DNA of 63,990 bases, counting the filler, from Rhizaria sp. SCN 62-66 (taxonomy: Eukaryota): the NCBI GenBank assembly GCA_001724265.1. It is 4 parts of 4 records of this genome, joined end to end, with 100 filler letters (N's around TTAATTAATTAA, not from the genome) between each part and the next. Parts side by side here need not be neighbours in the genome. Positions count along the whole stretch, not along the records: positions 1 to 25,866 come from MEDY01000495.1; positions 25,967 to 41,601 come from MEDY01000496.1; positions 41,702 to 56,757 come from MEDY01000497.1; 1 more part is not named here. One strand, written 5' to 3'. The translations under genes and the position numbers were made by a program. Every line of letters begins with the position of its first letter. Within the stretch, counting starts at the first letter, position 1. The notes under the pieces are model-generated. The model saw nothing but the letters and a program-made list of their open reading frames with translations. It did no database searches and was not told the DNA's origin. Below, piece by piece: positions 2,559 to 54,189 of this stretch.

Positions 2559-3356
2559 TCACAGAGCATCCGCATCGAACTCGCTGGCATCGAACTCGCT
2601 GGTGTTTGCGCCGCTCGCTCTGCTTCCATCGTCCGGCGCGTTGTTGTGCCACTGCCCATCTGTAACGGTGCCGTCGGCCGCGGTCAGCGTGCCGCTGCCG
2701 TGACGCTTGTGCTCGTGCCATTTGCCGTCGTACACGGCACCGTCAGCGTAGCGCATGCGGCCGCGGCCGTGGCGCATGCGTTCGCTGTTGACCTCGCCCG
2801 TGTACTCGCCACCGTCGGTGAAGCGTAGCGTGGCGACGCCCACCGCGCTCCCGCTCTTGAACGTGCCTTCGAGCTCGCGGCGACTGAGCGAATCATCGGC
2901 AGGGAACGTGTACTTGCCCGCGCCGATGGGCAGCGCCAGACGGTTCTGTCCTTCATACACAGCGCCTCTGTCGTAGTGGATGATGACATAGCCCTCAAGC
3001 TTTGACTGAACCCACTCGCCCTCCATCACCGCGCCCGCGCGCGAGCTCGTGAGCTTGCCCCAGCCGTGGCGCAGGCCGTGGGCCCACTCGCCTTCATACA
3101 CATGTCCCGCCTTGTCGTCGCGCGACGTGCCGTGGACCCAACGCCGGCCCTCACGGAATGATCCTGTGTAGACCTCGTGCTGCGACACCGACTCGACCCC
3201 TTCGCCGTGATACTTTCCACCAAGCCAAGAGCCAGAGTAGAGTTCGAAGCCCTTGGAGTCGCGAAGCGTGCCCACGCCTTCTGGCTGCCCGTTTACCAAT
3301 GTTCCTGTGTAAAGGTGGCCAAGATTCTAGTGGTCCACAGCTTCAATGGATGCCAT
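2559..3356 (-). CDS. MORN-repeat protein (ATG 3356 requires reading through TAG 3327-3329, or that TAG is an intron acceptor)
   Basis: Repeated YxGxWxxGxxHGxG units (YSGSWLGGKYHGEG, YEGEWAHGLRHGWG, YDGKWHEHKRHGSG). TGA stop. The 5' end is uncertain. Confidence 0.85.
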
Positions 3357-3999
3357 TATGTTAGATGTGGTTTCTGGAAGACATTATGATACATGAATAA
3401 ATAAAGAGATGGCACAGTACTTGCGAGTGATTAGAATTCACGACAAAATCATATTTTGTGTTGTAATTACAGTAATGAGTAAGATGGCTGTACATTCATG
3501 CTAGCCTGGAGGTAACGAAGGAGGCAAGCCCTTTTGGTGTGTTTTCTGTGTGGTAAGGCGACAAATGCACACAACACTGAAAGGTCCGAAGTTGCATTTA
3601 AATATTTGACATCAAAAAATACCTAAATAACTAACTAGTTCAGAGCTGCCGCAGTAGTTTGCACCAGGATGCACATGATACCCAAAGCTGGCGACCTTCT
3701 GTTCGTCACACCACAAAAAGCTCGCAACAGTGATCACGCACAAACTGGATGGATTGTGCTCAAAATACGCCTGTTTCCAGGACCATGGCGATCATTATCG
3801 GAGTTGTGGCGATATCGTGACTGAATTAAATTAGAGCAAATAATTTATTAATGATCAAAGACTTAAGTACGAGGCGTCTTCATAAATCATATTTCATCTG
3901 GTTGCTTCATTCAGCACGTACCGTGCCGATCGCTCTTAGTACTATGGCGAGCGGTGAAGCAATTGTCATTTTTAAATGATGTTGCAATAAAACCATTCT

Positions 4000-6900
4000 T
4001 TAATTATCGGTTGTGCCATCATCCTTCTCGTGGTGTGCATGACTCTCAACTTCTGCCTCTGTAGCATCAGCTTCTGCAGTCTCGACATTCTCAGCTTCAA
4101 CCTCAGCCTCAGCTTCCGACTCAGTCTCTGCCTCCGCCTCCGCGTCGGTGACGGCTTCCGCGTCCGTGGCGTCCGTGACGGCCGAGTAGTCGGCCGTGGC
4201 GTCGGTACTTGCGCACGCACGCGCGCTGGCGCTGGCCCCGGGCGCGGAGCCCGAGCGCCTCACCGCGCCGCTGGCCTGCGTGTCGGCGTCGGCATCGGCG
4301 TCGGCGCCATCGACGGCGAGCGGCGCGTAGCGCACCTGCTCCTCGGTGACCTCGAAGTCAAGTCGCGCCTCTTGTGCCGACTCAGCAACCATCCACTGCA
4401 CGGCGGGCGCGACCGCGAGCCAGTGCGCGCGTGTGAAGGCCTCGAGCGCGCGGCCCTGGGCGACGACCCAGCGCACCTGCCGGCACGCGCGCGGCTCCGT
4501 CGCCGCAGCCAGCGCCTCGCCCAGCGGCCGGTCGCCCAGCACAAAGGCCGATAGCGGCGTCTGCGTGATCACGGGACATCCGCCGTCGCCCAGCAGCGGC
4601 GCCAGCGGGGCGGCCGCGACGGACGCCGCAGCGGCGGCCTCGGCGGCGGCGACCACGGCCTCGGCGGCGGCGGCGTTGGCGGACGCCGTGTCGTTGTCGT
4701 CGTCGCCGCCCGCGCCGGCCCCGTCGCCGCGCGCGGCCAACTTGCTGGCGGCCGCGTTGGCGGCAGCCGCGGCCTCGAGCGTGGTGCCCGTGTTGTCGGC
4801 CGCGCGCTGCAGCAGCAGCTGCTGCTGGAAGTCGAGCTGTTGCTGCTGACGGCGCGCCTTCTCGGCCGCGGCAGCGAGCGCGTCGGCAACGTCGCCGCCC
4901 ATCGGCAGCGCGCCCCGCGCCGCGCGCGCGCGCATCAGCGACGGGTACGTGCGCGCCACGCTGCCCGCGGCGGCGCCGCCCACGGTCACGGCGGTCGCCG
5001 CCGCGCGCAGCGCCGTCGTCACCGAGAGCGCACACCCACGCGAGCAAGACATGCAGGGCTGCACGATGCGCGCGCCCGCGGCCGCGCGCTGCAGCGACTG
5101 CGCGCGCGACAGCCGCGTGCCGCCGGGCGCAGCAGCCGAAGAGGACGCGGAGCCCCAGACGAGGCAGACCTGCTTGCGCAGCGCGGCGAGCGCGCGGGTG
5201 CCAATGAGTGGCTCGAGCGGGCCGCCGCGGCGCAGGTGGCGGCGCGTGAGGCGCGGCAGCGGCGTCGCGACGGCGGCGCGGCGCACCTCGACGTTGGCGT
5301 CCTCGCTGCGCTCGCGCACCAGGTGCACCAGCGCCGAGTAGACCGACTGGCCCGACGATAGCCCGCCCGTGGCGACGGCGGCGGCGACGGCGCGTGCGCG
5401 GCCCGACGTCGGGGCGGAGCCCGCGAGCAGAGCGGCGGGCACGCGGTGGTGATGCTGCGGCTGCATCGGGTCGTCGGCCCAGCCCCAGGCGTAACCCGAG
5501 ACCGCGGCCAGCGCGAGCGCGGCGGCGTCGACAGGCCGTGCCGTCGCCGTGATCACCAGCGGCGGCGGCATCGGCGCCGCGGAGCCCGCAGCCGCGGCCG
5601 ACGTGGGCGAGGCCGACGCCGACGCGGCCGCGGTGCGCGCGGTGACGGCGGCGGCGGCGACGGCGGCGGCGAGCGCGCACGAGGGCGAGCGCAGCCCCAG
5701 CAGCCGCGCCGCGCCGCCCGTGCGCAGAGCCATGGTGGACTCAAGCGTGGCGAGCGCGGTGGCCGCGGCGTCGTCGTCCTCGTCGCCTAGCGGCAGCGCG
5801 GTCGGCGAGGCCATCGAGGCCGCGGCGACCGCGGCGGGGCCGGCGGCGGTGGCCGCGGCAGCGTAAGGATCAGCCGGCAGAGACGACGGCAGCGGCGGCG
5901 CGGGCAAGCGCGGCGCGCGCGAGAAGAGCAGGCTCAGCAGCGCCAGGACCTCGGGACGCGACGCCGCCACGGGCGCCGGCGGCAGCACGGGCAGGCGCGC
6001 TGCGACGGACGCGGGCGCGGGCGCGGAACGCAGCGTAAACTCGCTGTCGCTCTCGCTGTCGCTGTCGCCGAGGTCCGCGGACCCGCCGGACAGCCGCGCG
6101 CGGGCGGCGACGCCGCGGGAGCGCTTCTGCTGTTGCTGCGGCGAGAGCGGGGAGCGCGGCGAGATGCCACATGCGCAGCGGCACGCGCACGTGCACACAG
6201 CAACGACGTCAGCGTCCTCGCCAGCTCCGGTGCCGCAATCCTCGTCTTCGTCGTCATCGCTTCCGACAAAGTCGTCGTCGTCGACATCGGCCTCGTACTC
6301 CGACGAGGTGGGCGACTCGTCATCTCTGCTCGTCACGGCGTCACCGCGCGCGCGCACGCCGCGGCGCGACGCGCGCGGCGCGGGCCGCAGCACGTCAGCC
6401 AGTAGCCGCAGCACCGCGGCCGCGGCCTGCACGGCGTGCAGACGCACCGACGCGGCGGCCGCGGGCGCGATGGGGGACACGCTCGCCGCCGCCGCCGCAG
6501 CAGTCGCGGCGGCAGCGGCGGCCGCGTGCGTGGGGTACATGGCGCCGTGGCTCGTGGTGAGCTTGGCGGCCGCGGGGGCGAGCGCGCGCGCGAAGGCCTG
6601 CGCCACTGCCGCAGGCGGCGGCGGCGCGGCAAAGGCGGGCGCGAGCGCGGTGCCGGCGCGCGCGAGCATGACGACCTGCGGGAAAAGCAGCGCGAGGTAC
6701 ACGTCGTGGCCGACCCAGCGCGGCGCCGCGGCGGCAATGGACAGCAGTAGCGTCAGCGTGCCGGGCATCGGCGCGCGCGAGGACGGCGGCAGCAGCGCGG
6801 CGGCCACGGCCGCGGGCGACGGCAGCAGCTCCAGCGGCTCTGCCGACGCCGCCGAGGCGAGCACGGGCGAGGCCATCATGGCGGCGAGCGACTGCGGCGA

Positions 6901-9452
6901 CGGCGGGCCCTCGGCCACCACGACCTCGGGGGCGCCGGGCGCGATGACCGAGAGGTCGGCCAGCGTTACGGCCGTCGTGGGGCCCACGGTGAGCGGGACG
7001 AGCCCGCGCGTGGCGGCGTCCTTGCTCGCGCCGCTCGTGCTCACGGCCGAGCTGTGGCTGCGCGAGTTGGCGCGCTCGCGCCCGCCCGTGGCGCCCACCG
7101 CGGCGGCCGCGGCGGCCACGAGCGCGGCGGCGTCGCTGTCGGCCGCAACCGAGAGCGACATGGCGCGCGAGCGCGAGTGCGAGCGCGATAGCGCGGGCGT
7201 GATGTCGTGCACCGTGCTGCGGCGCTCGCGCAGCCCGTCGACCGAGATGCGGCCCGGCGACTGCGACGACGGCGAGTCGAGCTCCGTCTCATCCGCCGCC
7301 GCGGGCGCCACCAGCGGCACGCCCGCCATGAGCGCCAGCGCGCCGGCCAGCACCAGCCACGCGCCGCTCGGCGCCAGGTTCGTCGCCTCCGCGGCGGCAG
7401 CGTCCGCGGCCGCAGCGGCAGCGGCCGCAGCAGCAGAGTCGCCGGCCGCAGCAGCAGCAGTTGCGACAGCGGCGGCGGCCGCAGCGGCGGCGTTCGCGTC
7501 GCGCGCGCGCTGGCGCGAGTCCTCTGCGACGGCCTCGAGCACGGCGGGCACGTGGATCGCCGTCTCGACCGACACGCGGCGCACGGGGTCGCTCAGCAGC
7601 GTGACCACAAGCCGCGCGACGAGCTCCAGCGGGTCCAGCGCGGCGCGCACAGTCGCGATTCCGCCCATGAAGCCGCCGTTAGCAGTCACGGCGGCGGCGC
7701 CGGCGGCGTCGCCCGCGGCCGCGGCCGCAACGACGGGCATGCGCGCGCCGGGCAGCTGCGTGCGCGCGCCCAGCGCGGCTGCGGCGAGCAGCGGCAGCTG
7801 GCGCGCGATGATCACGCGCTCGCGCCACTGGCCCGCGGCCGCGACGGGCCGCTGAGACTGCGCGGCCGCGGCCACGCACGCGCGCGCACGCGCCCGCAGC
7901 AGTGCGCGCGGTGAGTACTCCCGCGGCGTCGCGCCGGCGTCGGCGCCGGAGGCGGGCGAGGGCGGCGAGTCGGGCGCGCTGTCCGCGGCGGGCACGGGTG
8001 CGACGGGCGACGGCGCCGCCTCGGGCTCCTGCTCGGACTCGCCATCGCTGCCGATGGCCGTCACACCCAGGAACGCCGACACTGGCAGCGTCTCGATCGT
8101 GTCCTCGGCCGCAGCCGCAGCGGCCGCGGCGGCCGCAGGCGCGGGCGCGGGCGGGTACGCGGTGTCGGCGTCTGCGCCGGCGCGCGGGCCGAGCCACATG
8201 TGCGCGTAGCAGCGGTGGCGCCAGAGCGCGCCGGGCACCGTCACGCAGTCGCCCGCGAACACCGCGGCGCCGGCCGCCGCGGGTGCAGCGGGGGGCTCTG
8301 CCGTCGCGGCGGCCACGCGGCCCGGGAAGAGCGGGAGCGGCGCGAGCAGCGTGCGCGTGAGCGCGGCAAGCGAGAGCGCGGGCAGCACGTAGCCGTCGTT
8401 GAGGTCGACGCCGACGCTCGCGGCTACGGCGGCGGCAGCGATGACGCCTGTCGAGCTCAGCGCCGTCTGTGCCGCCGCCGCCGTCGTGGCGTCAACAGCG
8501 GCACCGAGCCCAAGCGGCTTGACTTCGGCGTCGGCCGTCGCGGCGACGATGTCGGCCAGCACACCCAGCAGCACGCCGCGGCCGTGCTCGGTGCCGGGCG
8601 GCAGCGTCAGCAGCAGCTGCCCGACGGCGCCCAGCGCGCGGCGGCGGCCGGGCGAGCCGGCGGGCTCGGCGACCAGCGCTGTGAGCGTGGGTGCAAGCAC
8701 GAGCGCGGGCGCGAAGAAAGGCGACAGCAGCCCCGCCACGGCGGGCATGGAGCCCAGTAGCGCGTGCCGCAGCGGCGGGTGCGGTGCTGAGGCCAGCAGC
8801 CGGTGCAGCGGCAGTACGGGGTGCAGCGACAGCCACGTGTGGTAGAGCGACGACAGCACCTGCAGCGACGCGCCGGGCGCCGCGGCCACGCCACCCGCGC
8901 CGCACGCCTGCTGCGCCGCGTCGCGCGCCGCGGCCTCGGGCGCCGCGGCCGCGGCCGCCGCCGCTACAGCGTGCGCGTGCGCCGCGCGCATCACGTGCGC
9001 GAGCGCGACGACATGCCGCGGCTGCGCCTCGCGAGCGCCCGCGAGCCCCAGCACCGCGACCGCGCGCCGCGCCCACGGCAGCAGCACGCGGTGCACCTCT
9101 GCGCGCGCGTCAGGTGCACCGATGGACAATGCAGCCGCGGCGACGGGCTGCGCGAGCGGCGCGAGGCCCAGGCGCGCGGCGGCGGCGGCGGGCGCGGCGG
9201 CAGCGTCGGTGACGGCCCACCACTGCGGCGGCAGCGCCAGCGGCACGGGCGCGGCCGTCAGCGGCGCAAGCACGTGCGTCACGCCGGTCCCGTGCCCGGT
9301 CGCCACGTTGGTAGTGGTCGCAGCGGTCGCGGCTGTCGAGGCGGCGGTCGTCGCCGCAGGGTCGGGCAGGTCGTCGTCCTCGTGGTCGCTCTCGCACGCG
9401 AATACGGCCCCCGCAGCGCGCGCGTCGACGTCGCCGACGTCGCCGTCGCCGA

Positions 9453-9484
<32 letters not shown>

Positions 9485-12400
9485 CAACCAACCGCAGCGG
9501 CCGCCGCGTGAGTAGCGTTGACGCGCGTGCCTGCGATGGCCGCGGCGAGCGCGTCGGCAAAGGCCGCGTCGGCGCACATGGCGTCGAGTGCGGCCTGCGC
9601 GGCTGCGGCGACGGCGTCGGCGCCCGCAGCCTCGGCGGCAACGACCGAGGCCGTGGCGGCGCGCACGTGCGTCTGCTGCGCGTAGACGGGGTGCCAGAGC
9701 AGGCGCGCGAGCGGGCCCGTGAGCGTGTGCGCCACGCCCTCGAGCGCGGTCCACTCGGGCCCCACCAGCGTCGCGCCCAACGTGCGCGGCGCCGGCAGCA
9801 CCGGCGCCGTGGGCGGCACGCCCGGCGCGCCGACGAGGCCCGCCGAGAGCAGCGCTGCGGGCGACGCCGCCAGCGCCTCCGCCGGCAGCGCCAGCGGCGC
9901 GGGGGCCGCAGTCGCTGTGGCTGCGGGGGCACCGGCAGCAGCGGCGGCGGGCGCAGGCACGGGCACGGTCACGGAGATGGGGACCGCGGTCATGAGGACC
10001 GCAGGCGGGCCCGCGGCGGCGCTGAGCAGCGCGTCGAGGAACGCGGCCGTGACGGCGCCGGCTTCGGACGCGGCGTGGGGCTTGTGCTTGTCGGCGTGCG
10101 CCTCTGCGCCAGCGGCGGCGGTGGCCGCGGCGGCCGCGGCGGCCTCGGAAGACAGTCCCGCGAGCGCGGCGGGCAGCGCGCCCATGGGGGCGGCGGCGGC
10201 GGCGCGGCGCAGCAGTGTGGCCGCCACGGCGCCGAGCCCGCAGGCAGCACGCCCGCGCCCGCTGGTGCGCCCGCGGCGGCGGCGGCGGCCTCGGCGCAGA
10301 AGCGCGCCAGCGGGGAGCGCGCGAGCACGGCGGGCAGCGTGACGGCGGGCAGCCCGCGCAGCGCGAGGCGGCCCTTGACAGTTACCGACGCGGGCCCGCG
10401 GCGAGACGCAGACGCGTCGCCGGCGCCGTCATCGTTGGTGTCGCTAGACTTGGTCTCGGCGAGCTTCGAGGTGATAGTGAGGGGCACGGACACGGCGGCA
10501 GCCTTGCGGCCGCGGCCCAGCCCGCCGTCGCGGCTGCGGCCGGCGCCGTGGCCCGCCGCGAAGGATGCCACGCTCGTCGTGGGCGCCGCGGCGGGCGCGC
10601 CGGCAAGCGTGACGGCGGCCAGCAGCGCCCGCTGGCCGTGGTCACGCCCGCCAAAGCTTGCGCCGACGCAGGCAGCGGCGCCGCGGCGGCCGCGGTCGAG
10701 AGCGCGGCGGCGGAGGCGTCGCCGGCGGAGCGCGGGCGCGCGGGCGAGGCCTGCTGCGAGGACGCGGCGGAGCTGGGCGAGGCGAGCCCGATTACGGCGA
10801 GGTGCTGCTGCTGCTGCGCGACCGAGCGCGACTGCGAGTAGAGTGGCGCCTGGCCCAGCTGCGTCGGCGACAGGATCAGTAGCGATAGCAGCCGCGCGGG
10901 CGGCGCGTACCACACCGGCCGCGCCCAGCACTGCACCGGGACCGGGGCCGCGGCGCTGGTGTCAGCCTCGACCACGCCGCTCTCGGACTCGCCGCTCGCC
11001 GCCGCGGCCGCACTCGCGCTGTCGCCCGCAGGAGCAGCATCCTGTTGCTGGTCGTGGTCGTAGTCCTGGTCGAGCTCGGGCTCCTCGCCCTCTTCGAGCC
11101 CGATGACGGCGACCGGGTCGGGCTCGTCGCCCTCGGCGTCCTCGGGCGGGGACGCGAACACCACGTGCGGCAGCTCGCCCACGCCCGCGGCGCCGACCCA
11201 CCGCGCGGGGTCCTCGCACAGCGTCTCGACGGACCGCAGCAGCTGTCCGCGCGCGACGCGCGGCGCCACCACGCGGCCCATCGCGGCCACCGCGCCCAGG
11301 CACGTCTGCCGCACCTGCCACACCGGGTCCGCGCACAGACGCAGGAAGAAGGGCAGCAGCTTCCGCGCAGTCGCCGCGCGAAGGCTGCTCACCGTCACCA
11401 CGGGCGCCGCCGGCGCCTCGGGCACGGGCTCCACAACCTCAGCCTTCGCAGCCTCGGTCTCCACCTTCACAGTCTCAGTTTTGGCAGTCTCAGCTTTGGC
11501 CGTCTCGACAGCTTCAGCCTTTGTAGCAGTTGCGTCGCTGTCAGATGCGAGCTGAACTGCGACGTCAGCGGGCGCTGCGACAGGCTCTGTGCTCGCGTCG
11601 GCGAGAGCGTTCGCGTCGGCGCTGGCCTTGGACTCAGCCTCGGTGCCGGCCTCAGTCTCGGCCTCAACCTTGGCCTCCGCCTTGGCCTCTGTCTCGGGCT
11701 CAGTTTCCGTCTCAGTTTCCGTCTCAGTCTCTGTCTCCGTATCCGTGTCGGTCGCCTCGCCGCGAGCAGCCTTGGCCTGAGCCGCAGCGTCCGCGGCGGC
11801 CTCCGCCGCCGCCTGTTGCTGCGCCGCGACGACGGCTTTGCCGGCGGCGACCACGGCCTCCGCGGCCTTGGCCTCAGCCTCGGCGCGCGCCTCCTCAGCC
11901 GCGGCGCGGGCCCTCGCAGCGGCGGCGCGAGCGGCCGCGGCGCCGCCGGCGCGCGGACGGGGCGGCATCTCGATGCTGGTGGTGACGGCCGCGGCGGCGG
12001 CGACGGAGATGGGACCGAAGCACGCGGCCGCGCCCCAGCGCACCTGCATTACGGGGTCGTCCGCGAAGGCGACTAGCTCGGCCGAGAGCAGCGACGCGCA
12101 CAACGAGGGGTCCAGCGACGGCGCGATGCCGCGCAGCGTCGACAGCGCCGACACGCGCACGTCCTCGGGCGCGGCGTGCGCCAGCGGCAGCAGCTGAGGC
12201 AGCAGTAGGTCCGACACGAGCGTCGTCGCCGTGGGGTGCGTCGCCGCGCCGTGCGCGCGCGTGAAGGCCGGATCCAGCAGCTGCGCGGGCGGCCGCGGCG
12301 GCGGCGGCAGGCGCGCCATCGCGATGGCGGCGTCGCGCGCGCGCTCACGGATCTGTGGGCAGCGGTCCGCCAGCAGCATCACCAGCACTGGCAGCACGTG

Positions 12401-15346
12401 GTCCGCCACCAGCGCCATCGACGAAAGCCGCAGCGGCGGGTGCGCGGCGGCGGCGACGGCGGCGGCCGAGCCGGGGCCCGCATGCTCGGGCGCGCCCACA
12501 GCGACGGCGGCCGAGCCCGCGGAAGATTGCGTGAGCGACTGTGGCGAAGGCACCGCGAGCGCGCCCGCGGAGGAGGCCGATGAGCCGGAGAGCGAGACCG
12601 ACAGCGCACCGTGCGCGGGCGCCAGCGAGGCCATCTCCTCGCCCCCCGCGGCGCCCGCGAACAGGCCCTTGCCGGACGCCCGGCGCGGGCTCGCGCTCGG
12701 CGTGCTCACTGCGCTGCCACTGCCGTTGTTGCTGCCGGAGACGCTGGCCGCAGGGCCCACGCCCGCCGCGCCCGCGGGCAGCAGCAGCGAGACGGTGTTG
12801 CCGCCACTATTACCGCTGCCCGTGTCGCCCGCGCTGGCGCTGCCGCCACCATCCTTGGCCGCGGGCGCCGTGACCGTCACCGAGGGCGTGCCCGCGACGG
12901 CCGCGGCGCCCGGGGACGCCGAGTTGGCTGCGGACGAGGCCGCAGCGGTGCGCGACGAGGGCGACGGCGAGCGCGAGCGCGAGCGCAGGCCGAAGAGTCG
13001 GCGCCAGCCCGATCGCTTGGTGTTCTTGCTCGCGGCGGGCGCGGCGGCGTCTGCGTCGTGGTGCTCAGGCTCGGGCTCGTGTCCGTGCTCGTCGTCGCCC
13101 GCGCCCGCTGCGTGGTCCGCGCCGTCGACCGTGGAGCTCGACGCCGCCGTGTCAGTGTCGTCGCCCGCCGTCGCCACGGAGCTCCCGCGGTGCCCGCGCA
13201 CCGAGGCGCCGCTCGCGCCGTCGCCGTCGCCGCTCGTCGACACGCTCGCGCCGCCCGCGCCAGGCCCGTCGCCGTCGCCGGTCGTGTCGTTCGCCGCGGC
13301 GGCGGCGGCGGCGGCGGCCTCCGCGGCGGCCTCTGCCTCGGCGGCGGCCGCTGCGGCAATGGCAGCCGCGGCGGCGGCCTCTGCCTCCGCGGCCGCGGCG
13401 GCCTCTGCGACGGCGCGCGCGGCGTGCACTGCGGCCTTCTTGCGCCAGCGCCGCGCCGTGGTGATGCGGCGCACGCAGTCACGCTCCCAGCCGCGGCCGC
13501 GCGCGCCGCCGTCGCGGTCCGCCGCCGCCAGCAGCCCCTGCAGCTGCGCCTGCGCGCCGGCCTCCTCGCCTGCCACCGTCGCCGCCGCGCGCACGGCGGC
13601 CTCGGCGGCCGCGGCCTGCGCGTCGGCGTACGCGCCCAGGTCCGCGCCGAAGGAAAAACCCGACCGGACGCGCCCTGGCAGCGCCGTGAGCGCGCCCGCG
13701 CTGGCGCTCGAAGCGAAGCCCGCGCTGTGGCGGCTGCGGCCGAAGCGGGCGCCGGTCGAAAGAGAGAGCGCGCCCACGCTCGCGACCGTCGGCAGGTCGC
13801 CGCCGCTCTCGGAAATGTCGCCCAGCGCACCGCTGCCGCTGCTGCTGCTGTTGCTGCTGTTGCTGTTGCTGCTGGTGGCGTCGCTGGCGCTGCTACTGCT
13901 GCTGTCGAGCGGCGGCAGACTAACTGAGGTCACCAGCGCGCCGGGCACAGCGCCCTCTTCGGCCGCCGCAGCCTTGGCCGCAGCGGCGGCCTCTGCGGCG
14001 GCCATGAGCTCGGCTGCGGGCACTGGCGGCGCCTCGAAGGCGGCGCGGTACGCGGCCGCCGCGGCCTCGGTCGCCGCCGCCGCCGCGGCCACTGCGTCCT
14101 CGCCCTCGCCGCTCGCGCCCGCTAGCCCCGCCTCAGCGGCAGTACCAGTGGCAGCGGCAGCGGCAGCGGCGGCAGCGGCGAGAGCTAGCGAGTTGCGACG
14201 CGAGCTGGAGCGGCTCCGCAGGACCACCTGCACTGGCCGCGCCTTGCAGCCCGCGTCGCCGCCCGCGGCGGAGCCCACGCCCGTGCCGCCCGCCGCGCCC
14301 GCGCCCGAGGCCGAGCCGGAGCCCGAGCCGGAGCCCGAGCCGGCGCCGGCGCCAGCGGAGCCCGCGCCCGCAGCCGGGGACGCCGGCGCGGAGGCCGCTG
14401 TGGCGTACAGCCCGGCGCCTGCGGCCGCCGCGTCGCCGCCCGCGGCCGCCGCAGCGGTCGTTACGCTCAGCCACGGCCGCACCGGCTTCGCGGGGGTCGC
14501 GGCTGCGGCTGCGGCTGCGGCTGCGGCTGCCGCTGCGGCTGCGGCAGCCGCGGCTGCGGCATCCTGCGCCGAGGACTTCCAGAGAAAGCTGCGGCGCTTG
14601 AGCGCCGGGGAGGCCGCGGCGGCGACGGCGGCTTGCGCGGCGGTCTCGGCGGCGGCCATGGCGGCGGCGGAGCCGGGCGGCGGTGCGGTGAGCGTGGCCA
14701 TGGACAGGTTGTAACCGAGCAGCCCCTTGTGCATCTCGTCGTCGTCGACCTCGATGGCGCCCTCGGTGACGAGCAAGTGCGCCAGCGCGGGCAGCTGCTG
14801 CACCAGCACCATGCGCACCGCGATCAGCGAGTCGCGCGCGATGTCGCGCAGCAGCGGCAGCAGGCGCGCCGCCGTCGCCGATGGGCCCACCTCCTTGGCC
14901 GTCGCCAGCAGCCGCGACACGAAGACGAGCCGCCGGAAGTCGTCCGCAAACGGAATCTCGTCGCGCGCGTCCGCGGCCGCCGCGCTGGCCGCGTGCGGGG
15001 ACGCCGCGCCCGCCGCGCCGCCCGCCGCGCCAGCGCCGGTGCCGGCGGCGGAGGACGAGGACGACGGGGACGTGAGGGCCGAAGCCACGCCGCCGGGGCC
15101 TGCGCCGGCGCCCGCGGAGAGCCCGCCGGGGCCCGCGGGCGCGGGGGTGCCCGGGAGGTAGGCCGTGGCGGAGGCAGGGCGCGCGCGTGTGTAGAGGATG
15201 AAGCGTTCGAGCGCGGCAATGTGCTCGGGAATCGCCAGTTCTGCAGCGGTGCGGCCGCGGGCCAGAGAGCCCGGGGCGCCGCCGCCGCCGCCGCCACCGC
15301 CGCCGCCGGACGCCACGGGACTGGCGGCACCGCCGGAGCGCGACAT
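4000..15346 (-). CDS. Giant HEAT-repeat protein, PP4 regulatory subunit 1 (PP4R1)/PP2A-A-like, about 3780 aa, with two apparent 1-nt frameshifts near 10630 and 10240
   Basis: HEAT units LLPLLRDIARDSLIAVR, VLPVLVMLLADRCPQIR, FADDPVMQVR, LLPFFLRLCADPVWQVR, LCEDPARWV, WRERV, LLSDPVRRV and SEDANVEVR are spread over three successive frames (15346-10382, 10931-9990, 10227-4000) and separated by Ala-rich inserts. TAA stop. Confidence 0.7.
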
Positions 15347-20578: not shown

Positions 20579-20617
20579 ACACACGCACACACACACACAC
20601 ACACACGCACACACGCA
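20579..20617. repeat. Imperfect (CA)n microsatellite in the region between two convergent genes
   Basis: acacacgcacacacacacacacacacacgcacacacgca. Confidence 0.8.
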
Positions 20618-41701: not shown

Positions 41702-41703
41702 AT

Positions 41704-43822: not shown

Positions 43823-44560
43823 TTTAGGGAAGCCTAGTTCATGTCACCCACAAGAGAAACTGTCTGTCGCAAGAACATAGAACTATGCGAAATAGAGCAC
43901 AGTATGCAGTACATTGTGGATGTTTATGTAAATGGGAACTACGGTTCGCTGACTACGAATCGTCGTCCTGAGAGCGTCACGTCCGCGAACACTAGCCACA
44001 CTCAGTTATAATTCGGAACCAATGGGAACTATAAGTGATCTCATACATAACGCGTGTATGTTGTTTGCTTGTTTCTGAACAAAACATAGTGATTTATGGA
44101 TACATGTACATCATAAAATATTACATCTGTTGAATAACATTGATGACAACTATCAATGACAGTTGTCATCATTGGTGTCATCATCAGTCCGTGAACTGCT
44201 GTAGTACCAGCGAGTAAGTTTTACTAGATGGTTAGAAGAGGAAAGAAAATTACAGCGTGTTGCGACCATCATTGGCCATGTGCTGTCATGTGGCAGACGA
44301 CGGCAAAATCTTCAAACAGAACATGTTCGTAATTAGATAAAGAAGCGGTGTGCTGAAGCAAATGATACAAGCCCGTCAGCAGCTGTACGTAGATGTCGAG
44401 GCTTCGTTCAAAATAAAACTATCGTTAAGACAAATTTATCAAAAACATCGTCGAAGACTGAATTACTCACAGTTCGTAAGTGCACAATGTGCAATGCAGT
44501 TTGATAGACGCATGTCGCAATTTGTTCGCGGCTTGTTCACAGTTTGTTTGCAGCAGGCAC

Positions 44561-45488
44561 TCAGTGCGCGACAAAGGCCCTGACTGCGGCGCTGAGATCC
44601 GGATGCGAAGACTTGCGCACATTCACGCGCAAGTGCAAGAACTCGTGCAAATCCACCGTCACAGCCACCACGGCGTCGGGATCAAGCACACGAAGCGCGC
44701 CGCCAGTACTCGCGAGCAGTGCCTGTTGTTGCGCCTGTGTCAGCTGCGCCTGCGCGTGAGCGTGCGGGTCCGGCCCCGGCGACGGCGACATCGACACCGG
44801 CGCCGCAGTCGCAGCAGCAGCAGCAGCCGCGGACGCGGACGCCGCAGCCGCCGCAGCCGCCGCAGCCGCAGCAGCCTGGCCCTGGCCCTGGCCCTGGCCC
44901 TGATGCGACTGGGGCCCGCCGCCGCTCTGCCCCGCACTGCTCAGCGCGGCGTCAGCCTCGGCGGCGGCGATACGTGCGGCGAGCGCGACGGTGGCGCTTG
45001 TAGTGCCGAGAACCGACACTGCGCGGTCATACGAGTACAGAGAACCCTTGGTGTCAACGAGAGAAGTGGCACGGTGCATGGTCTGCGCGTCGAAAACAAC
45101 GCCGAAACGGCCGCGAGGGGCCGGGCGCGCCATCAGCGGGTTCAGCGACGCCGCCGCCAACGCAGCAGCTGGCGATGACAACGACGACGCCGATGACAAC
45201 GATGACGATGAGGACGAGGACTGCTGGTTGCCAGCGGAGGCCGCAGCAGCGACGGCGGCCGCAGCGGCCGCGGCAACGGCGGCGCTCACACACGACTCAA
45301 CACTGTCAGCCGCAGGCGCGTTTCCTGTCGTAGTCGCAGCTCTGGCGGCAGTAGTCCCGGGGGGGCTCGCTGCCGCAGTTGCGGCGGCGCTGTCGGAAGA
45401 GTCGCCCGTGGTGGCACCAGCGGCACTGGGACCGGCGCTGGCGGTCTCAGGCGTGCCCTGGTTGCCGGCAACGCCGGCGTCCTCGGCC

Positions 45489-45520
<32 letters not shown>

Positions 45521-48481
45521 CGTGGCCGCAGTGACGGCGCGCTTATTCACCGCGCCGCGCGTCTTGGCCGCAGGCGGCTGCAGCACGTCCAGCCCCGACA
45601 GCCCGGCGCCGGCGTAGCTCCCCGCCGCGCGCGCGGGGGCGGCGCCGGTGCCCGTCGCGGGCGGGGCGGGCAGTCCCAGTCCGGCAGCGGCGGCCGCGGC
45701 GGCGGCGCCGGGGCCGGCGGCCGCGAGCAACCACGCCGGCGCGCGCGCGGGGGCGGGGAACCTCTGCAGCAGCGCCTGCGCCTGCGCCACAAGCAGCGCG
45801 GGCGCGCGAGGGGAGAACGCCCACATCAACGCCTGTGCGAGCGCGTCGCTGTGTGCTTCGACCGCGGCGGCGTTGATCGCTGCGAGCGCGGGCGCGGCGA
45901 CGGCGGCGGACGCGGCGGCGGCGGCGGCGGCGGCCGCAGCGGCGGAGGCGAACACGGCCGTCGCGGCAGTCGCAGCGGCCACGGCGACGGAAGGGGCGAC
46001 TGAGGGCGCGGCGGCCACGGCTGCGGCGATCGCCGCGGCAGAGGGGGTCGGGATCACGCCAGCGAGCCCCGCGGGCGTCGCAGGAGCAGATGCGGGCTGC
46101 GGCGTCTGCGCTGCTGAGCTCTGCTGCTGTTGCTGGCCGCTAGCATGATGACCGTGACCGTGACCATGAGTGTGGTTCTGAAGGCTCTGGTGTGCAGCGG
46201 CGTGGGCCGCAGGAGTGACCGTAGGCGGGGTGACCGTGGGCGGGGTGACCGTGGGCACCAGGGAATACCACATCGCGGCCTTCGCCTGCACGACAACGAC
46301 GCCGATGAGCGCGAGCGAGATGTACTGCGGCCGCAGCAGCGACGGCGCGCACAGAGCCGACACGGGGACGCCCCCGCGCGCCGCTGCAGCCGCAGCCGCC
46401 GCGGCCTCCTCTCTGCCGGCCTCGGCGACGCTCTCGAGCTCCTCCGTGGCGTCTACTGCCCCAACAACAACAGCTGCAGCAGAAGCATCAGAAGCGGCAG
46501 TGGTGGCGGCGGCGGCGGCGGCAGTGGGGGGGAGTAGCCCGCCCCAGGCCGTGGCGTCGTGGGCGGGCAACTGCGCAGACAACAACGCTAAGTCAAAGCT
46601 CACGTCACGCACATACCGGCCCACGCCGCCGGCACCGATATTGCACGCAGTGGGATAATTCACTGGTACTGACGACTGTGAGTCGGCCGGTGACGCAGTC
46701 GCTGATGATGCTGCGTTTGTAGCACTCGACACAGTCTCAGTCCCAGCCGTAGCAGCAGCAGCAGCAGCAGGAGAAGGAGCAGCGGCGGTGGCAGCAGCGG
46801 CGGCATCGCTGTTGCTCGCCGTCGCAGCCGCGACAGCAGAGGAGGGATTCTGCGACTGCTGCTGTTGTGGTTGCTGCGATGACTTGATGTCGGTTCGCCA
46901 ACCGTGCCTGTCCGCATCGGACCGGCCAAAGTGGAACGGCGTGACGAACGGCGACGGCCCTACGAGTTCGAACGCGTGGTACGTGACGACGGTGCTCTCG
47001 ACCCACGCCAGCGCGCGGTGCTGGCACAGCACGGGCGTCCACGCCACGGCGTACCACGACCGCGTGCGGTCAACGCCGGCCAGCGTCAGCGAGGCCAGCC
47101 GCGGGTGCTGGGCGCAGAGCAGCGCGGCCTGCTGGGCCAGGGGGCGGCGCTGGTGAGGCGGCTGCCACTCACTGAAGTCCACCAGAAGCTTCGGGACACC
47201 GCTGCCGCTGCCGCTGCCAATGCCAGTGGTAGAGCTAGAGCTCGATGAGCTCGAGCTAGAACTGGCGTTGACTGAACGAGAAGTGGAGCTTGTACTGTTG
47301 CTCGCATTCGCGTTCAGACTCGCGTTCACACTCGTGTTCGCGGTCGCACTCGCGTTGTTGGCAGAACTGTTCGCGGTGTTGGAGCTAGAAGTCGATGCAG
47401 AGTGCACAGTGGTCGTCGCATGGGCTTGCACAGCAGCAGCAGCACCAGCAGCAACACCAGCAGCAGAAGAGCCAGCAGCAGCACCAGTAGTCGTAGCGTT
47501 GCTGATCGCTGCGGCATCGTGCACACCGGCGTTGTCAGCCGCGTAAATCTGCATAGCCGAGAGTGTAGGAGTAAAATAGTACTGTTCGCAGCCGCAGCCG
47601 ATAGCACCGCCAGATCCGCCGCCGCCGCCCGCCGCCGCCGCCGCCACCACGGCCTCCACTGCGTCTGCTCCTGCGCCACCTAAACTCACGCCGCAGGCCT
47701 CAGCCTCACCAGTACTAGACTGCGCGCCAAAAGGAGACAGAAACCCGCCGAGTGCGGCCGAGGCGGCGGCCACGGCGGCGGGGCCCGGGTCAGAGCGGTG
47801 GTCCGAGGGCGGCTCCACGGGGGTTAAGAGGGGGACGGCGTGGCCACAGGGCTCGTCGTAAAAGGCCCAGAGTGCAGATAAAGGCGTGTCGGACTGGTAG
47901 GGGTCAATGGCCACGCGCGGCGGGCACAGGGAGCCGCCGGGGTACGGCGCCGCAGTGGAGCTGCCAAAGGCAGAAGGTGAGCCAAAGCCAGAGCTTGAGT
48001 TTGCAGAGCTAGAGCTGGTATTAATAGAGGCCGGGGGAAGCGAAGGGCCGTGGTGGTGGTTCTGCGGCGCCGCTGCCGCTAAAGCGGCAGGATCCTTCTG
48101 CTCGGGCTCCTGCAGGGTCGCGTCGCTCGCAGCGGAAAGCGCGGCGAGCGCCGTCATAGCATCCTGCTGCTGTTGTGCGAGCTTCTGGCGCAGCAACAGA
48201 GCGCCGACCACGCGCTGCTCGTACACGGCCTCAGCTGCAATTGCGGAGGCAACGGAGGCCGGGCGCAAAGGCAGCTGCACGGGGCCCGCGGCGGCAGCGA
48301 CAACCGAGCCCGCGGGGGCGAGCGCGGAGGCGTCGAATGCGGGCGTAAGTGTGTGAAGCAAACGAGTGAGGTTGGCGTTGGGGCGCAGGCGCGGGACGGC
48401 CAGCGCGGCCGAAGAAGCCGACGAAGCGGTCGAGACCTGCGGCGCGCACAGCAGGTCCACTTTGGCGTTGTTGTGGAACAT
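44561..48481 (-). CDS. DUF789-domain protein with long Ala/Ser insertions
   Basis: NLTRLLHTLTP, LSALWAFYDEP..G..VPL, QYYFTPTLSAMQIY and FSEWQPPHQRRPL...HPRLASLTLAGVD..RSWYAVAWTP match the DUF789 motif order. TGA stop. Confidence 0.8.
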
Positions 48482-49101
48482 CGCGGGCCGGGCGGGGGCG
48501 CGGACCGGGGCGGCGCGGCGACAAAGAGGTGTTGGAAACGGGACTTGGAAGGGACAGTGAAAGACCGAGTGCGGTTACTTGATCAGGGTACCTACACGTA
48601 GAAATCAATTATGGAAGTGAACGCATCGTAGAAAGATAAATTAGCATAGATTGTAAACCATATCATGATGACAGCTTCGCTGAATCTCATAGTGGACTAT
48701 ATGATCCCCTTCAAAAAGTGGAGTCCGGCCTTGACACAAGAGACTGAGTCTCGATGATAAACCGAAGCTAGCAGGCCAAGCCAGAGGCGACTGGGAATAC
48801 AATAAGCAGATAAGGTACAAAAAAAGTCAGACTACTTCAAAAGACTGCTGAACTCCTGCACTTGCGAGAGACGCAGTCACAGTAGAAGGCGTTCAACGAC
48901 GTCGATCGGCCGGGCTCTCGAGATCGTCTTCGACCGGTCTGCAAACGCGCGTCAAGTCTGCCGGCGCCTTCAGGTTGACTTCTCCGTGTGATATCAATAT
49001 AGTTCATATATTATTGCATGTGGGTAAATAATCAAGTTTTTTATATAGGATATTTGAAAATATCTTTTAAAGAATGCGATTTTGAGTCGCAGTCTCTTCC
49101 T

Positions 49102-52100
49102 TTACAATAAATAGCGTTTGAGGTCCATCTCGACCTCGTCCTCTTCCTCCTCCCACTCGAAGTCAACATCCTCCAGCAGCGGATTCAGCTCACGAGCCAC
49201 CCACACTGCATCCACCAGCGCGTAGACCCACACGCCGTCCGCGGGCCCGCGCCGCGCCGTTTCTTCGGCCTCTGCCGCGGTCATTGTCTCCAGGGACTCA
49301 GTTGATGGCCGCGCGGGACTTAACCCGGCCGCCCAGGGCCGCGCGCGCACTTCCGCCCGCGCGGCCGCAGCAGCATCGCCGGGCCCCGCAAGCGCACATA
49401 GCTCACGCCACTCCTCCGCGGCGCGCGCCACGAGCGCGGGCGCGTGGAAACTCAGCCGCTCGAGCGCGGCACCCACCACAGTCTGCAGCCGGCGCGCGCC
49501 GATGTCGTCCTCTCCGTGGCCCTGGTTGTGCGCCGTCCCGCCGTGTGAGCGCGCCGCGGAGTGGTGCTGCGGGGATACAGAGAGCAGAGGTGCGGCGCCC
49601 AAGGCTTCGCGGGCGCGCGCGGCGTCGCGCTGGCGGCGCGCGTGCGAGAGCCGGCGCGGGCGGTACATCGGCGAGGTCCACGCGCGCCACGGGTCACTCT
49701 CCTCGCTGGACTGCGCCGCCGAAACGGCTGAGTCAGCAGAAGTCGTAGCAGTGGCAGTCGCATCGGTCCCGTTCGTAGCTGTGCAGTCGCTCTTGTTCGC
49801 TTGCGACGATGAAGACATAGATAGAGATGAGTCGGCTGTGGCTGCCCACGCGCCCTTAGCTGCGAGCGCGGTCTCCGCGGCGGCCTCATCCTCCTCCGCC
49901 GCCGCGTCAGCCGCGTCAGCCTCGGCCTCTGCCTCCGGATCGCGTCCGTTGAGCCCCACCGCGGCCTCCGCCAGCGCGCGCGCCGCGCCCGCAGTCGCCT
50001 CGAGCGCGATGCCCTCAGAGCGCAGCAGCGCCGCATGCTGCCGCAGCAGCGCGCGCTCGCCGGCGACCAACACGCGCGCCAGCGCGGCGGGGCCCAACGG
50101 GGACAGGTCCGCACGCAGCGGGAGACGGCCACGCAGTTCGGGCAACAGGTCCTCGGGCCGCGAAACGTGAAACGCGCCCGCGGCAACGAAGAGCACGTGC
50201 GTCGTGTCCACAGGGCCGGCCGAGGTCTTAACGGTTGTACCTTCCAGCAGGGTCAGAAGCTCCTTCTGAACGCCCTCACCTTTGGCCCCCAGCGCGCCCG
50301 CCCCGGTCACAATACTCCCGTCGCCGTTTGACACCGAGCCGGGTGCAGGCGCGTACTGCTGCTGTTGCTGCAACAAACGGCGGCGGCGACGCGCAGCAGC
50401 GGCGCGCACCGCCTCGCTCGCGCCCGCTGTATCTGCGTTAGTTCCAGCCTCCTTGGTGCGGCGCGAGAGCAGTGCACTCTTGCGGGCCCGCCGCGCCGCC
50501 GTGGCCGCCGCCGACGCCGACGCAACGGCGCCGCCGACGCCGCCCGCGCGCGCGGCGGAGCGCCCGGGGCGCGCGAGCTTATCGACCTCGTCGAGGAACA
50601 CCACGCCCGCGCTCGCGGCGGCGCGCGCGGCGACGGCGTCGAGCAGCGCGCGGGACAGGGGCGCGGGCGGCTGCGGATGCACCGCGGCCGCGGGTGCGAG
50701 CGCAGGCGCGGGCAGCGGGGCGGCGGCGGCGGCGGCGGCGTGCGGCGCGGCGACCGAGGCGGGGATGGCCCACCGGTGCGCGAGGGAGTGCCGCAGACGG
50801 GCCAGAGCGGCGGCGGCGGACACGCGGGAGCGCGGGCCGGGGGCGGCCGCCGCGGCGGCGACTGCCAGCGCTGCTGAAGGATCAAGCGGGGGCATGCCGG
50901 CGCCGTGACTGCCGCCGCTGATGCCGCTATGTGCAGTGCCGCCGATGCTGTTGTGGCTGCCGTGGTGCGAAGGCGCGACGCCGAGGCCGAGGGAAGCCAG
51001 AGAGGAGCGCAACAGCGGGGACGTCCCCGCGCCGCTCGCCCTGAATGAGCCGGGCGACGACGACGATAACATAGACGATGACGATGACGAAGAAAGCGAC
51101 GATTGCGACAAGGCAGATGACGATGACAGATTAGACAGCTCACTGAACGCAGTGCCCGCGATAGGCACCAGTGAAGAGGTCTCGCCGCGGTTGAAGGCGA
51201 CAGAGTCCGATCCAAGAGTGTACTGGCCAGACGCGGCGTGACTTTGAGTCAACGCGGCCTGACTTTGCGTCAGCAGACGGGCCTCGTAAGCGGGGTCAGC
51301 GTCATCGTCTTGGTAACCGCCGCCGCCGCCGCCACCGCCGCCACCGCCGCCGTGAACAGAGTCGTTGCCCCCGCCTAAGATGCCGCCCAACAGCGACGCG
51401 AGCGGCACCTGCATCGCCCCACCGCCCCCGCCGCGCCCGCCGCCGCCAAGGACGAGCGCGCCGCCCGGTGCGGCGGGGCCGGCGGTTGCAAGCGCGTGGG
51501 CCAGCCCCAGCGCGTCGGGCGGCGGCGGCGGCAGGGCGAGGTCGAGAGAGCACAGCAGCAGCGGCAGCGGCGCGGGCGCGGCCGGCAGTGCAAGGGTTAG
51601 CGAGGCCGTCGCGGCAGTGGCGGCGGCGAAGGCGGCGGCGGTCGCGGCCAACGAGGGCGCTCCGGGCAGCCACGCAGCGAGACTGGCGCCGTAGCCGCTC
51701 AACTCGTTATCCTAATCCTGATCGCGATCATCGCTGCGACTGGGCCGAGTGGTGGTGGGGACGCTCTCCGACGCAGACACGGGGGCGGCAGCATCTGCGT
51801 CCGCACTCTTGTTCGCAGCAACAGAGGCAGTGCCCGCGTTGATACTGTTGTCGGGCTCGATCGGGGCGACCTCGATGACAACAGAGCCGAAGATCGAGCC
51901 AGACAGCCCACTCACCCCGCCGCCGCCGCTGCTTTCACTGTCAACAGTGTGGTTCATAGACCCGGCAAGCGGGGAGTCACGCGCGCCAGGCAGCGCAGGC
52001 AACAAGTCCCAGCTCGATCCCATGGCAGTTGAAGCAGATGCTGCGTCCACAACGGTGGAGTTCGACGGCATCGCGGTGGTGTAGCCCACAGGAGAGCCCC

Positions 52101-54189
52101 TGCCGCCGCGGTGGTTGTTGCCTGGAACGACCGTGTAGGCCGCCACACGCTGTCCCCTCGCAGTACTGGCCGCAGACTCACTCTTCCCCTTGTTGGCCAG
52201 CGCACTCGCACTGACGTTCGGAGGTGCGGTCAGAGACGCGGGTTGATTCAGCGTCGGGGACTGAGCAAGCAGTGCGCGCCAGAGCGCAACACCGGCCACA
52301 AGCGGGGGCGCGGCGGCCACGGCAGCGCGCTGCGCAGCGAGCGCGGCTGCGGCGGCCACGGCGGCCACGCGAGCGGACTCGGCCGCGGCGGCAGCAGCAG
52401 CGGCGGCGGGCGAGAGCGACAGCGCAGGAGGCTGCACCGCCGTCACCGCAGTGTACGCAGCAGCGCCAGGCAGCGCGCTAGCGACAGCAAAGCTTGAGGA
52501 AGCAGCATTCGCAACGTTACTGCAACTGCCACTCTTGTTTTCAGTGTGAGAAGCCCAGAGATCAGTGAAAGGCAGGAGCATTTCGCCGAGTAATAAGCGC
52601 TCAACCTCGTCATCCCCCGCAACCCCATTGCCGCCCTCTGTCGCCGCCGCAGCTGCCGCACAAGAAGTGACCGTGAGTCCCGTAGGGAAGAAGTTAAGCC
52701 GCGTGTCCGGATGCGCCAGCAAAGCGCGTTCGTACGCAGCCCGCGCATGCGCCTCGTCGCCAGTCGCGCCAAAAGCAGCAGCACTTGAGTCACCCAAAGA
52801 CGAAGCACCGGCAGTCGTCGCGGCAGTGGGTAGGCCGAAGGACGCGGCCAGCGCTGCGGCGTCCGCAGCGGCGACAGCGCGCGCCGCAGCTTCATACCGC
52901 GCCACCGCGTCGCCAAGCGTCTCTGCGACAGCGGCACTGATCTCCACGGCGTCGTGCTCAACACTCTGCTGTGTTACGGTCGACTGCGCAGTGGCAACAG
53001 CGGAGGCAGTTTGCGCAGCGGAGATAGCGGCGATCGCGGCGTCGACGCGCGCGAGCGGTGTCTTGGCCGCAGCGGCCGCAGCAGCAGAGAGAAACGCCTC
53101 CGCGGCCGCTAGCGCCTCAGCCACCTGCGCTGAGGCCGCCGTGACCGCCCGCACGGATGCGACGGCGACGGCCATCTCAGCACCACGCCGTTCGGCGCAG
53201 GCAGCGCGGCGGCACACGCGCGCGGGGGCCGGCGCGGGCACCGTAGTAACACGGTTAAAGCTCGATGCAGCGGGAGAGCTGGAGTGGCCGGTGGCGGCGG
53301 CGAGCGCGGCGGGAGCAGCGGCGGCGGCGGGCTCCATGCTCGGCGGCCGCGCGGGGCCCTGCATGACAGCGCGCGGCAGCGGCAACAACACAGGCCCGGA
53401 CGCACCCACAGCGGACGCGCTCGCGGTCAACGGCGCGGCGCTGGGCGACTGAGCGGAGGAGCAAGTAGGGCAGCGACAGTTGCTCTGCGCGAGCGCACGG
53501 CGGCGCACCGCTGCTTGCGCGACGAGAGCGCGCGCGTCGTTCGCCAAGTCGTCGACGAGAGTGCTAAGGTCTGTGCCGACCATGCCGACCTCGGTGAACC
53601 GCGTGGCCTCGGCGGCGGCGAAGGGCGCGCGCGAGAGCGGCGGAATCCACCCAGGGTGCGACAGCGGCGCTGTGAGATATGGTGCAGTCGCTACGGAGAG
53701 CGCGCGGGCCGCGGCGGCCGCGGGGGCGCGCAGAGCGGCCGCGGTGGGCAGAGCGGGGGCCGCAGCAACAACGGCCGAGGCGGCGGCCTTGACCAGCGCG
53801 GTCTTGCCGCTGCCGGTGGGACCCGTGAGCAGGATTCCGGCCGCGGCGGCGGGCGCGGCGGCGCGGCGCAAAGCGGGGTCTGAGACGGCTAAGCGGCGCG
53901 CGCGGGCGCGGAGCGCGACGGCGAGAGCGCGCTTGGTCGCAGGGTGGCCAACAATAGTGCGCGACATGGCCTGCACCAGCGCGCGCGGCGAGGGCGTCGA
54001 TGACAGCGGTAGCGGCGCGGCGGAGAGCTCGAAAGACGGGCAAGACATCGACGGAGAGGCTGAGGATGCAGTCGGGAGCGCAGAGAGGCCGCGGTGCGAG
54101 GTCGTCGCCGTCACCGTCACCGTCAGCGCAGAACGCGCTGCGGCGGAGACGGCGCGCCTGCTGTGAAGGTGCGAGAGCGCGCGGAACAT
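49102..54189 (-). CDS. hslU: Mitochondrial HslU (ClpY) AAA+ ATPase, 1695 codons when read through in-frame TAG 51712-51714
   Basis: Before the TAG: presequence, PRALV..IVG..KRALAVALR, Walker A GPTGSGKT, EATRFTEVGMVG. After it: Walker B GVVFLDEVDK, GEGVQKELL.LLEG, HVLFVAAGAFH..PEDLLPELRGRLP, DIGARRL, C-terminal DLKRYLL. Both halves are in the same frame. TAA stop. Confidence 0.9.

Follow-up and report, generated by a model that had tools for sequence, protein, structure and literature searches.

The DNA analysed here (the window) is a stretch of 63,990 bases from the assembly GCA_001724265.1 of Rhizaria sp. SCN 62-66, and our subject is the codon TAG, which stands in frame inside otherwise intact genes of this DNA. 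The window is made up of four contigs (positions 1-25866, 25967-41601, 41702-56757 and 56858-63990), with runs of N and a 12-base linker at the joints. Contigs 1-3 carry long, GC-rich exons, with a GC content at third codon positions (GC3) of about 0.75-0.9, and the intergenic DNA has a GC content of about 40-50%. The genes found encode the C-terminus of ribosomal protein SA, a MORN protein, an EamA protein, Isy1, HslV, a YbaK-OLA1 protein, a TIG-domain protein, a DnaJ/zuotin protein, a DUF789 protein and HslU. Introns are few and canonical (GT-AG); the one measured, in the OLA1 part of the YbaK gene, is 356 nt long with about 50% GC, and a pyrimidine tract precedes the final AG wherever an intron acceptor was read. 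When words were sampled from 27900-32400, a fraction of 0.65-1.00 of them was present in four runs from three studies, three of these runs being labelled as bioreactor or wastewater metagenomes and one being unlabelled. Because the genes bear introns and the DNA is present in runs of several studies, mostly of bioreactors or wastewater, the source is a metagenome bin of an uncultured eukaryote rather than an isolate genome.

Two of the in-frame TAGs are strong sites, and the first of them lies in the YbaK domain of the YbaK-OLA1 gene. A match to the Pfam family tRNA_edit extends over residues 98-218 of the open reading frame (ORF) and covers positions 3-122 of the 123 positions of the profile (E 4.2e-20), thereby enclosing the TAG. 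The 78 codons between the ATG and the TAG align on their own to residues 46-120 of the eukaryotic homolog P0005 (E 1e-11), and the aligned part of P0005 ends directly before its sequence NEHEIVKTL. Upstream of the TAG, the ORF has a codon-usage score of 0.27 per codon, compared with 0.2-0.38 for genes, and downstream of it the frame stays open for 663 codons. The GC content around the TAG is 0.65, versus about 0.50 in the OLA1 intron, and no intron signal was seen in the local sequence. We then have one alignment column that is informative about the TAG: among 42 of the 43 homolog matches (P0004, which comes from the same organism and starts past the TAG, was excluded), the residue at this position is Glu in 40, Val in one, Ile in one and Gln in none. 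P0005 also has Glu in this column, and the column after it is His in 41 of the 42 homologs, followed by an invariant K-T-L. As for the layout of the gene, a YbaK/ProX-type tRNA-editing domain and a YchF/OLA1-like GTPase form a fusion in a single frame, separated by an Ala-rich linker of about 440 residues; the G1 motif of the GTPase closes exon 1, and the YchF C-domain lies in exon 2.

The second strong site is in the HslU gene, where the TAG is located in a largely low-complexity insert of roughly 950 residues at the position of the I-domain. Against PDB 7mhb_A (E 1.1e-45), residues 71-243 of the frame match HslU positions 4-127, including Walker A, and residues 1190-1589 match positions 232-402, a part that contains Walker B and the sensor region. 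A single frame holds 829 open codons upstream of the TAG and 869 downstream, and a frame scan based on codon usage showed that the frame is constant from 52680 to 51120, spanning the TAG. The half downstream of the TAG is 47% identical to the relative P0052, with long identical motifs, and ends at the conserved C-terminus of the family, KRYLL, which P0052 has in common. Since the TAG separates Walker A from Walker B, the two halves have to be joined in a single HslU chain. The HslV partner is intact in the same bin (22670-23587, plus strand), and decoding or readthrough of UAG must therefore be efficient. The homolog search with the C-terminal part of HslU was dominated by low-complexity words and gave two matches among 8000 scored candidates, whereas a whole-library search with 301 residues around the TAG returned one match, its own N-terminal part, and thus no residue of a relative for the TAG position; genome-contig scans with the protein calls P0174 and P0177 found no relative. 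HslV and HslU are of the mitochondrial type. Matches to HslV are unnamed or alphaproteobacterial, and its nearest Atlas clusters are eukaryotic HslV, with Chlorophyta and Bacillariophyta the commonest, which is to be taken as a lead only. About 95 residues extend HslV at its N-terminus and presumably serve as a targeting sequence. In HslV, the relative P0056 has 84% identity. In HslU of another relative, P0053, a low-complexity insert likewise lies between Walker A and Walker B.

Next to these two genes stands the pattern of gene ends. On contigs 1-3 we located 15 gene ends (Table 1), of which seven are TAA, eight are TGA and none is TAG, a result with a p of 0.013 if TAG normally closed 25% of the genes. 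Coding-like ORFs that close in TAG were not found on these contigs beyond the two strong cases, in which TAG would be read as sense, and an exon of the mitochondrial-carrier-like gene, in which it belongs to a splice donor. No TAA or TGA was found in the sense frame of the genes on contigs 1-3, an observation that is partly circular because the genes were delimited by TAA and TGA; the in-frame TAA and TGA that we did see are intronic, belong to antisense frames, or come past the two shifts of frame within the giant Ala-rich gene. Past the gene ends of contigs 1-3, the next in-frame stop is TAA or TGA in 14 of the 14 genes that have one within 60 codons, and a TAG stop comes only later, 36-52 codons on, and in three genes.

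Table 1. Positions, in the window, of in-frame TAGs, gene ends, genes and introns
Feature	Positions	Strand	Remarks
In-frame TAG, YbaK/tRNA_edit domain	28439-28441	+	residue 113 of ORF 28103-30433; strong site
In-frame TAG, HslU	51712-51714	-	residue 830 of 1699-codon frame; GAT CAG GAT TAG GAT; strong site
In-frame TAG, coiled-coil-like ORF	41749-41751	+	16 codons from contig edge; ORF ends with TGA at 42664-42666; weak site
In-frame TAG, MORN-repeat gene	3327-3329	-	codon 10 after ATG at 3356-3354; TGA at 2561-2559; weak site
YbaK-OLA1 gene	28205-32262	+	ATG at 28205; one intron, 30128-30483; TAA end
HslU gene	49102-54189	-	ATG at 54189-54187; TAA at 49104-49102
TAA end, ribosomal protein SA/uS2 C-terminus	350-352	+	
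TGA end, gene 917-2152	2150-2152	+	
TGA end, MORN gene	2559-2561	-	
TAA end, giant Ala-rich gene	4000-4002	-	
TAA end, EamA/SLC35F-like gene	19494-19496	+	
TGA end, Isy1	21081-21083	-	
TGA end, HslV	23585-23587	+	
TAA end, mitochondrial-carrier-like gene	26277-26279	-	named from sequence pattern only
TAA end, YbaK-OLA1	32260-32262	+	
TGA end, TIG-domain gene	35802-35804	+	
TGA end, DnaJ/zuotin-homology/zinc-finger gene	36286-36288	-	
TAA end, gene with weak MA3 match	40005-40007	-	
TGA end, coiled-coil ORF	42664-42666	+	
TGA end, DUF789 gene	44561-44563	-	
TAA end, HslU	49102-49104	-	
TAG end, P-loop ORF of contig 4	61275-61277	-	ORF 61275-63005, 576 codons; sole clear ORF of contig 4
Intron, YchF/OLA1 part of YbaK gene	30128-30483	+	GTACGC...TTTAG, 356 nt
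Intron, DnaJ/zuotin-homology gene	38589-38455	-	GTAAGT...CAG, 135 nt
In-frame AT-rich intron, gene 917-2152	ends about 1866	+	holds in-frame TAA/TGA at 1802-1825
GTAGGT splice donor, mitochondrial-carrier-like gene	TAG at 27064-27066		read from the sequence

A first-pass annotation of this DNA had reported in-frame TAGs in four genes on three contigs, and all four are indeed present and in frame; they differ in strength. The YbaK and HslU sites are robust, but the other two, in the coiled-coil-like ORF and in the MORN gene, are weak: at the local non-coding composition, the chance that the relevant stretch would stay open is 0.42 for the 15 codons at the coiled-coil site and 0.59 for the nine codons at the MORN site. 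The MORN TAG is probably a sense codon; alternatively, it could be a 3' splice site ending in CACTAG, though a pyrimidine tract does not come before it. The count of gene ends in the same annotation was reproduced exactly when we repeated it, and its statement that comparable internal TAA or TGA codons are lacking agrees with our findings, within the circularity mentioned above.

Other TAGs that would join ORFs were considered as sense codons and rejected. The TAG at 30481-30483 is the 3' splice site of the OLA1 intron, the one at 38542-38544 is inside the intron of the DnaJ gene, and the one at 27064-27066 is part of the splice donor GTAGGT. The ORF at 19832-21112, considered as a gene ending in TAG, was rejected as a junk translation.

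Both strong TAGs were found again in other assemblies. X3, a run of another study, contains a 1215-nt contig that matches 27381-28595 with no differences and no gaps, the YbaK TAG included, and the 1156 nt of the JGI metagenome locus L001 show 100% identity to 27381-28536, again with the TAG; the two begin at the same base, and L001 may not be independent of X3. At HslU, protein calls from other assemblies break at the TAG: P0174 (825 aa; Logan and ENA; contigs up to 39,703 nt), P0175 (778 aa; a 15,076-nt contig) and P0176 (244 aa; a 2,247-nt contig) all end in SRSDDRDQD, whose last residue directly precedes the TAG. At YbaK, P0177 (656 aa; contigs up to 40,935 nt) and P0004 (219 aa) begin nine codons past the TAG. 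Overall, gene calls of this kind occur on contigs as long as 39.7, 40.9 and 68.4 kb. Along contig 2, X3 differs from the window at 4 of 11,443 listed bases and X4 at 2 of 8,395, or 0.02-0.035%, with no indels listed for either; contig joints with short sides (20-24 letters) in low-complexity sequence were ignored. This recurrence of the TAG, or of the break, outside the assembly of the window and in a second study rules out sequencing error at the YbaK and HslU sites. Contigs of a polyA metatranscriptome (X6) fall on exons of the YbaK-OLA1, TIG, DnaJ/zuotin and MA3 genes of contig 2. In P0004, which represents another assembly of 28466-29080, the last eight residues diverge from the window. 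This divergent end resembles read-through into a sequencing adapter, and the contig of P0004 appears to be a raw assembly end.

We analyzed codon usage in 18 gene segments comprising 43.5 kb of coding DNA. In-frame TAG accounts for 4 of 14,493 codons, or about 0.03%, in a census into which about 31 codons from the OLA1 intron (30128-30220) were also counted; if TAG stands for Glu, this amounts to about 0.6% of the Glu codons. Such TAGs occur in two to four of the 18 otherwise intact segments, two of which have family matches conserved on both sides of the TAG. The first-pass annotation had favoured Gln as the amino acid, pointing to the GAT CAG GAT TAG GAT repeat of HslU and to the polar surroundings of the TAGs. 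This preference did not hold up, in that the repeat and the polar contexts suit Glu equally. Because the single informative column is nearly invariant for Glu and is without Gln, the alignments suggest that the amino acid is more likely glutamate than glutamine. The contexts of the other three TAGs (DRDQD_DNE, KADE_AKAKAVEEEE and AVDH_NLG) suit either residue. If TAG arose from GAG, the change would be neutral should TAG mean Glu; such an origin also fits simple nonsense mutation, but less well.

We consider it likely that UAG is a rare sense codon in this organism, probably for Glu, and that UAA and UGA are stops. The weight of this case rests on intact conserved genes, on recurrence across assemblies and studies, and on the 15 gene ends without TAG. 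The earlier proposal of a translated TAG, with TAA and TGA kept as terminators, is thus supported by the two robust sites, their confirmation in DNA and the gene ends, although not in its choice of Gln. We put forward more tentatively, as a possibility slightly weaker than an even one, that the window belongs to an undescribed nuclear code in which UAG means Glu and the stops are UAA and UGA, used by an uncultured GC-rich eukaryote of wastewater or bioreactors and caught at an early stage in which UAG has gone from the gene ends. To call the code nuclear, as before, is reasonable given the canonical GT-AG introns, with the proviso that the DNA comes from a metagenome bin and not from an isolate genome. 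In the mechanism that we envisage, UAG would be decoded as an amino acid, most likely glutamate, and UAA and UGA would terminate translation. The decoder would be a presumed tRNA whose anticodon, CUA, differs by one base from that of tRNA-Glu(CUC), and the release factor would no longer be efficient at UAG. The translation of UAG, the tRNA, the change in the release factor and the absence of any stop function of TAG are all things that we infer from the DNA. Because UAG is so rare, the data suggest that the reassignment is recent or weakly used.

Several observations weigh against this interpretation. Fifteen gene ends are a small sample, and if TAG closed 10% of the genes, none among 15 would be expected with a p of 0.21. 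At the codon usage of these genes, 66% of random single-base nonsense changes yield TAG, the chief one-step sources being GAG (553), TCG (408) and CAG (361), and four TAGs with no TAA or TGA would arise under random mutation with a p of 0.19; that only TAG occurs is therefore a weaker argument than had been supposed. The strong sites number two, and the informative conserved column is one. Our comparison of run contigs, made along contig 2, speaks for the YbaK site and for none of the other three. Among the matches listed for the RNA sets X6 and X7, none covers 28439, a lack of cover that is itself no evidence. A tRNA scan of the whole 64-kb window gave no tRNA genes, hence no tRNA with a CUA anticodon, and eRF1 is absent from the genes found within the window. 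Furthermore, TAG is far rarer here than in published UAG reassignments such as that of Iotanema.

A possible counter-example is located on contig 4, whose P-loop ORF closes in TAG under the standard code; this, too, counts against UAG as a sense codon. If the TAG is read through, a second TAG follows after seven codons and a TGA after 17. The ORF is P-loop NTPase-like, with a weak match to nSTAND3 (E 0.029), and has a GC3 of 0.50. Contig 4 has a GC content of about 0.51 and no GC3-rich genes, and it may have been mis-binned or may represent a region of mobile elements. Another ORF of this contig (56982-57704, minus strand), transposase-like by eye, joins across an in-frame TAG at 57405-57407.

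Among the other explanations, the one that survives best, improbable as we judge it, is that UAG is ambiguous or context-dependent, acting as a stop at some gene ends and being read through efficiently elsewhere by a suppressor or near-cognate tRNA. The rarity of in-frame TAG, a TAG share of about 10% as still compatible with the 15 ends, and the halt of the contig 4 ORF at TAG would all agree with a dual meaning, and codons that serve both as stop and as sense have been described in ciliates and in Blastocrithidia. However, no gene on contigs 1-3 ends in TAG, and with the Walker motifs of HslU on opposite sides of the codon such readthrough would have to be efficient.

We give a smaller chance to the standard code with genuine premature stops, which would make these genes pseudogenes, or their products truncated proteins, fixed in the population. 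TAG is what most nonsense changes would produce, GAG to TAG is the commonest route, and the YbaK TAG stands in a Glu column just as a GAG-to-TAG mutation would leave it. Four random nonsense changes, however, would imply about 170 substitutions, or 0.39% of the 43.5 kb of coding DNA, and the range for two to four such changes is about 85-170 (0.2-0.39%); yet the frames downstream of the TAGs in YbaK and HslU remain open for 663 and 869 codons, the downstream half of HslU is conserved, and no frameshifts or other stops accompany the TAGs in these genes. The same TAG is found in runs of different studies, and premature stops leave the lack of TAG at all 15 gene ends unexplained.

Removal or change of the TAGs before translation, by unrecognised introns or by RNA editing, seems to us very unlikely. 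Introns do exist in these genes, the three other TAGs that would merge ORFs are intronic, the MORN TAG can be read as a splice site, and none of the RNA matches listed spans a TAG. But the introns that we read start with GTAAGT, GTACGC or GTAGGT, whereas the YbaK and HslU TAGs are embedded in coding DNA of 65-70% GC without such signals; homology and frame continue through the YbaK TAG residue for residue, and the MORN TAG lacks the pyrimidine tract. Finally, error in sequencing or assembly, for which one could cite the nature of a metagenome assembly and the two unexplained frame changes in the giant gene, is scarcely credible, given that the YbaK TAG is identical in X3 and L001, that the HslU calls on three sizes of contig end at the same residue, and that the runs differ so little from the window, with no indels listed.

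The frame changes just mentioned are in the giant Ala-rich gene (4000-15550, minus strand), where the codon-usage frame shifts twice within 400 nt, at about 10640 and about 10240. Both sit in GC-rich sequence without an intron-like AT-rich stretch, and indel errors, genuine frameshifts or short introns of an unusual kind could each account for them. Many of the top PDB entries for ribosomal SA/uS2 matched the ribosomal protein SA fragment about equally well (about 113-117 bits), and an Rfam scan of the window gave no families.

Codes that part UAG from UAA are few, and each of them tests how eRF1 discriminates UAG from UAA and how suppressor tRNAs become fixed. If UAG is indeed translated here, the organism might add a case outside the ciliates, GC-rich and with very rare UAG, and so display an early stage of reassignment of the kind that is seldom observed, a natural view of codon capture while it is under way. 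Such an early stage is predicted by theory (codon capture versus an ambiguous intermediate). There is also a consequence for annotation. Gene callers that use the standard code cut genes at TAG, and HslU and YbaK-OLA1 are stored as pieces (P0174-P0177 and P0004); as a result, truncation is systematic in annotations of metagenome bins like this one.

The code proposed here would be a new nuclear-code variant, while UAG-only reassignment itself is already known. To our knowledge, none of the NCBI code tables combines UAG=Glu with stops at UAA and UGA, and a literature search, with supplements outside its reach, gave no report of a UAG=Glu-only code or of this organism. In peritrich ciliates, UAR is read as Glu, and trypanosomatids have almost no cis-spliced introns.

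According to the report on Rhizaria sp. exLh and Iotanema spirale (PMC5304391), these are UAG-only reassignments outside the ciliates, to Leu and to Gln, respectively, with 204 in-frame UAG codons in 126 genes of Iotanema. Our DNA resembles them in that UAG alone would be sense while UAA and UGA end genes, and the types of evidence given there are the same as ours, though our sample is very small: UAG codons stand in frame at conserved columns, and UAG is missing from the gene ends (71 and 119 there). It differs in that UAG is common in both of them and stands for Leu or Gln, whereas here it makes up 4 of 14,493 codons and the informative column is Glu; moreover, ours is a GC-rich metagenome bin, and neither a tRNA nor eRF1 was seen in the window. 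Among ciliates, Oligohymenophorea sp. PL0344 (PMC10553269) has UAA=Lys and UAG=Glu with UGA as the only stop. The likeness is a UAG for Glu that is uncoupled from UAA, but in PL0344 UAA is reassigned as well and suppressor tRNA genes were found, whereas in our window UAA ends 7 of 15 genes; in further contrast, the DNA here is GC-rich, with long exons and with introns that are few and canonical. Phyllopharyngean ciliates (PMC11687900) show UAG-only reassignments to Leu and Gln that were likewise discovered by searching metagenomes and public genomes; there, the amino acid is another one, UAG is widespread as a sense codon and UAA is the preferred stop, whereas TAA and TGA are about equally frequent here. 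Blastocrithidia nonstop (PMC12153298) has UAR=Glu and UGA=Trp, and UAA additionally acts as a stop. A cognate tRNA decodes UAG as Glu there, as is proposed for our case, in which that tRNA is presumed; by contrast, UAA and UGA are also reassigned in Blastocrithidia, and the genes described here have several canonical GT-AG introns.

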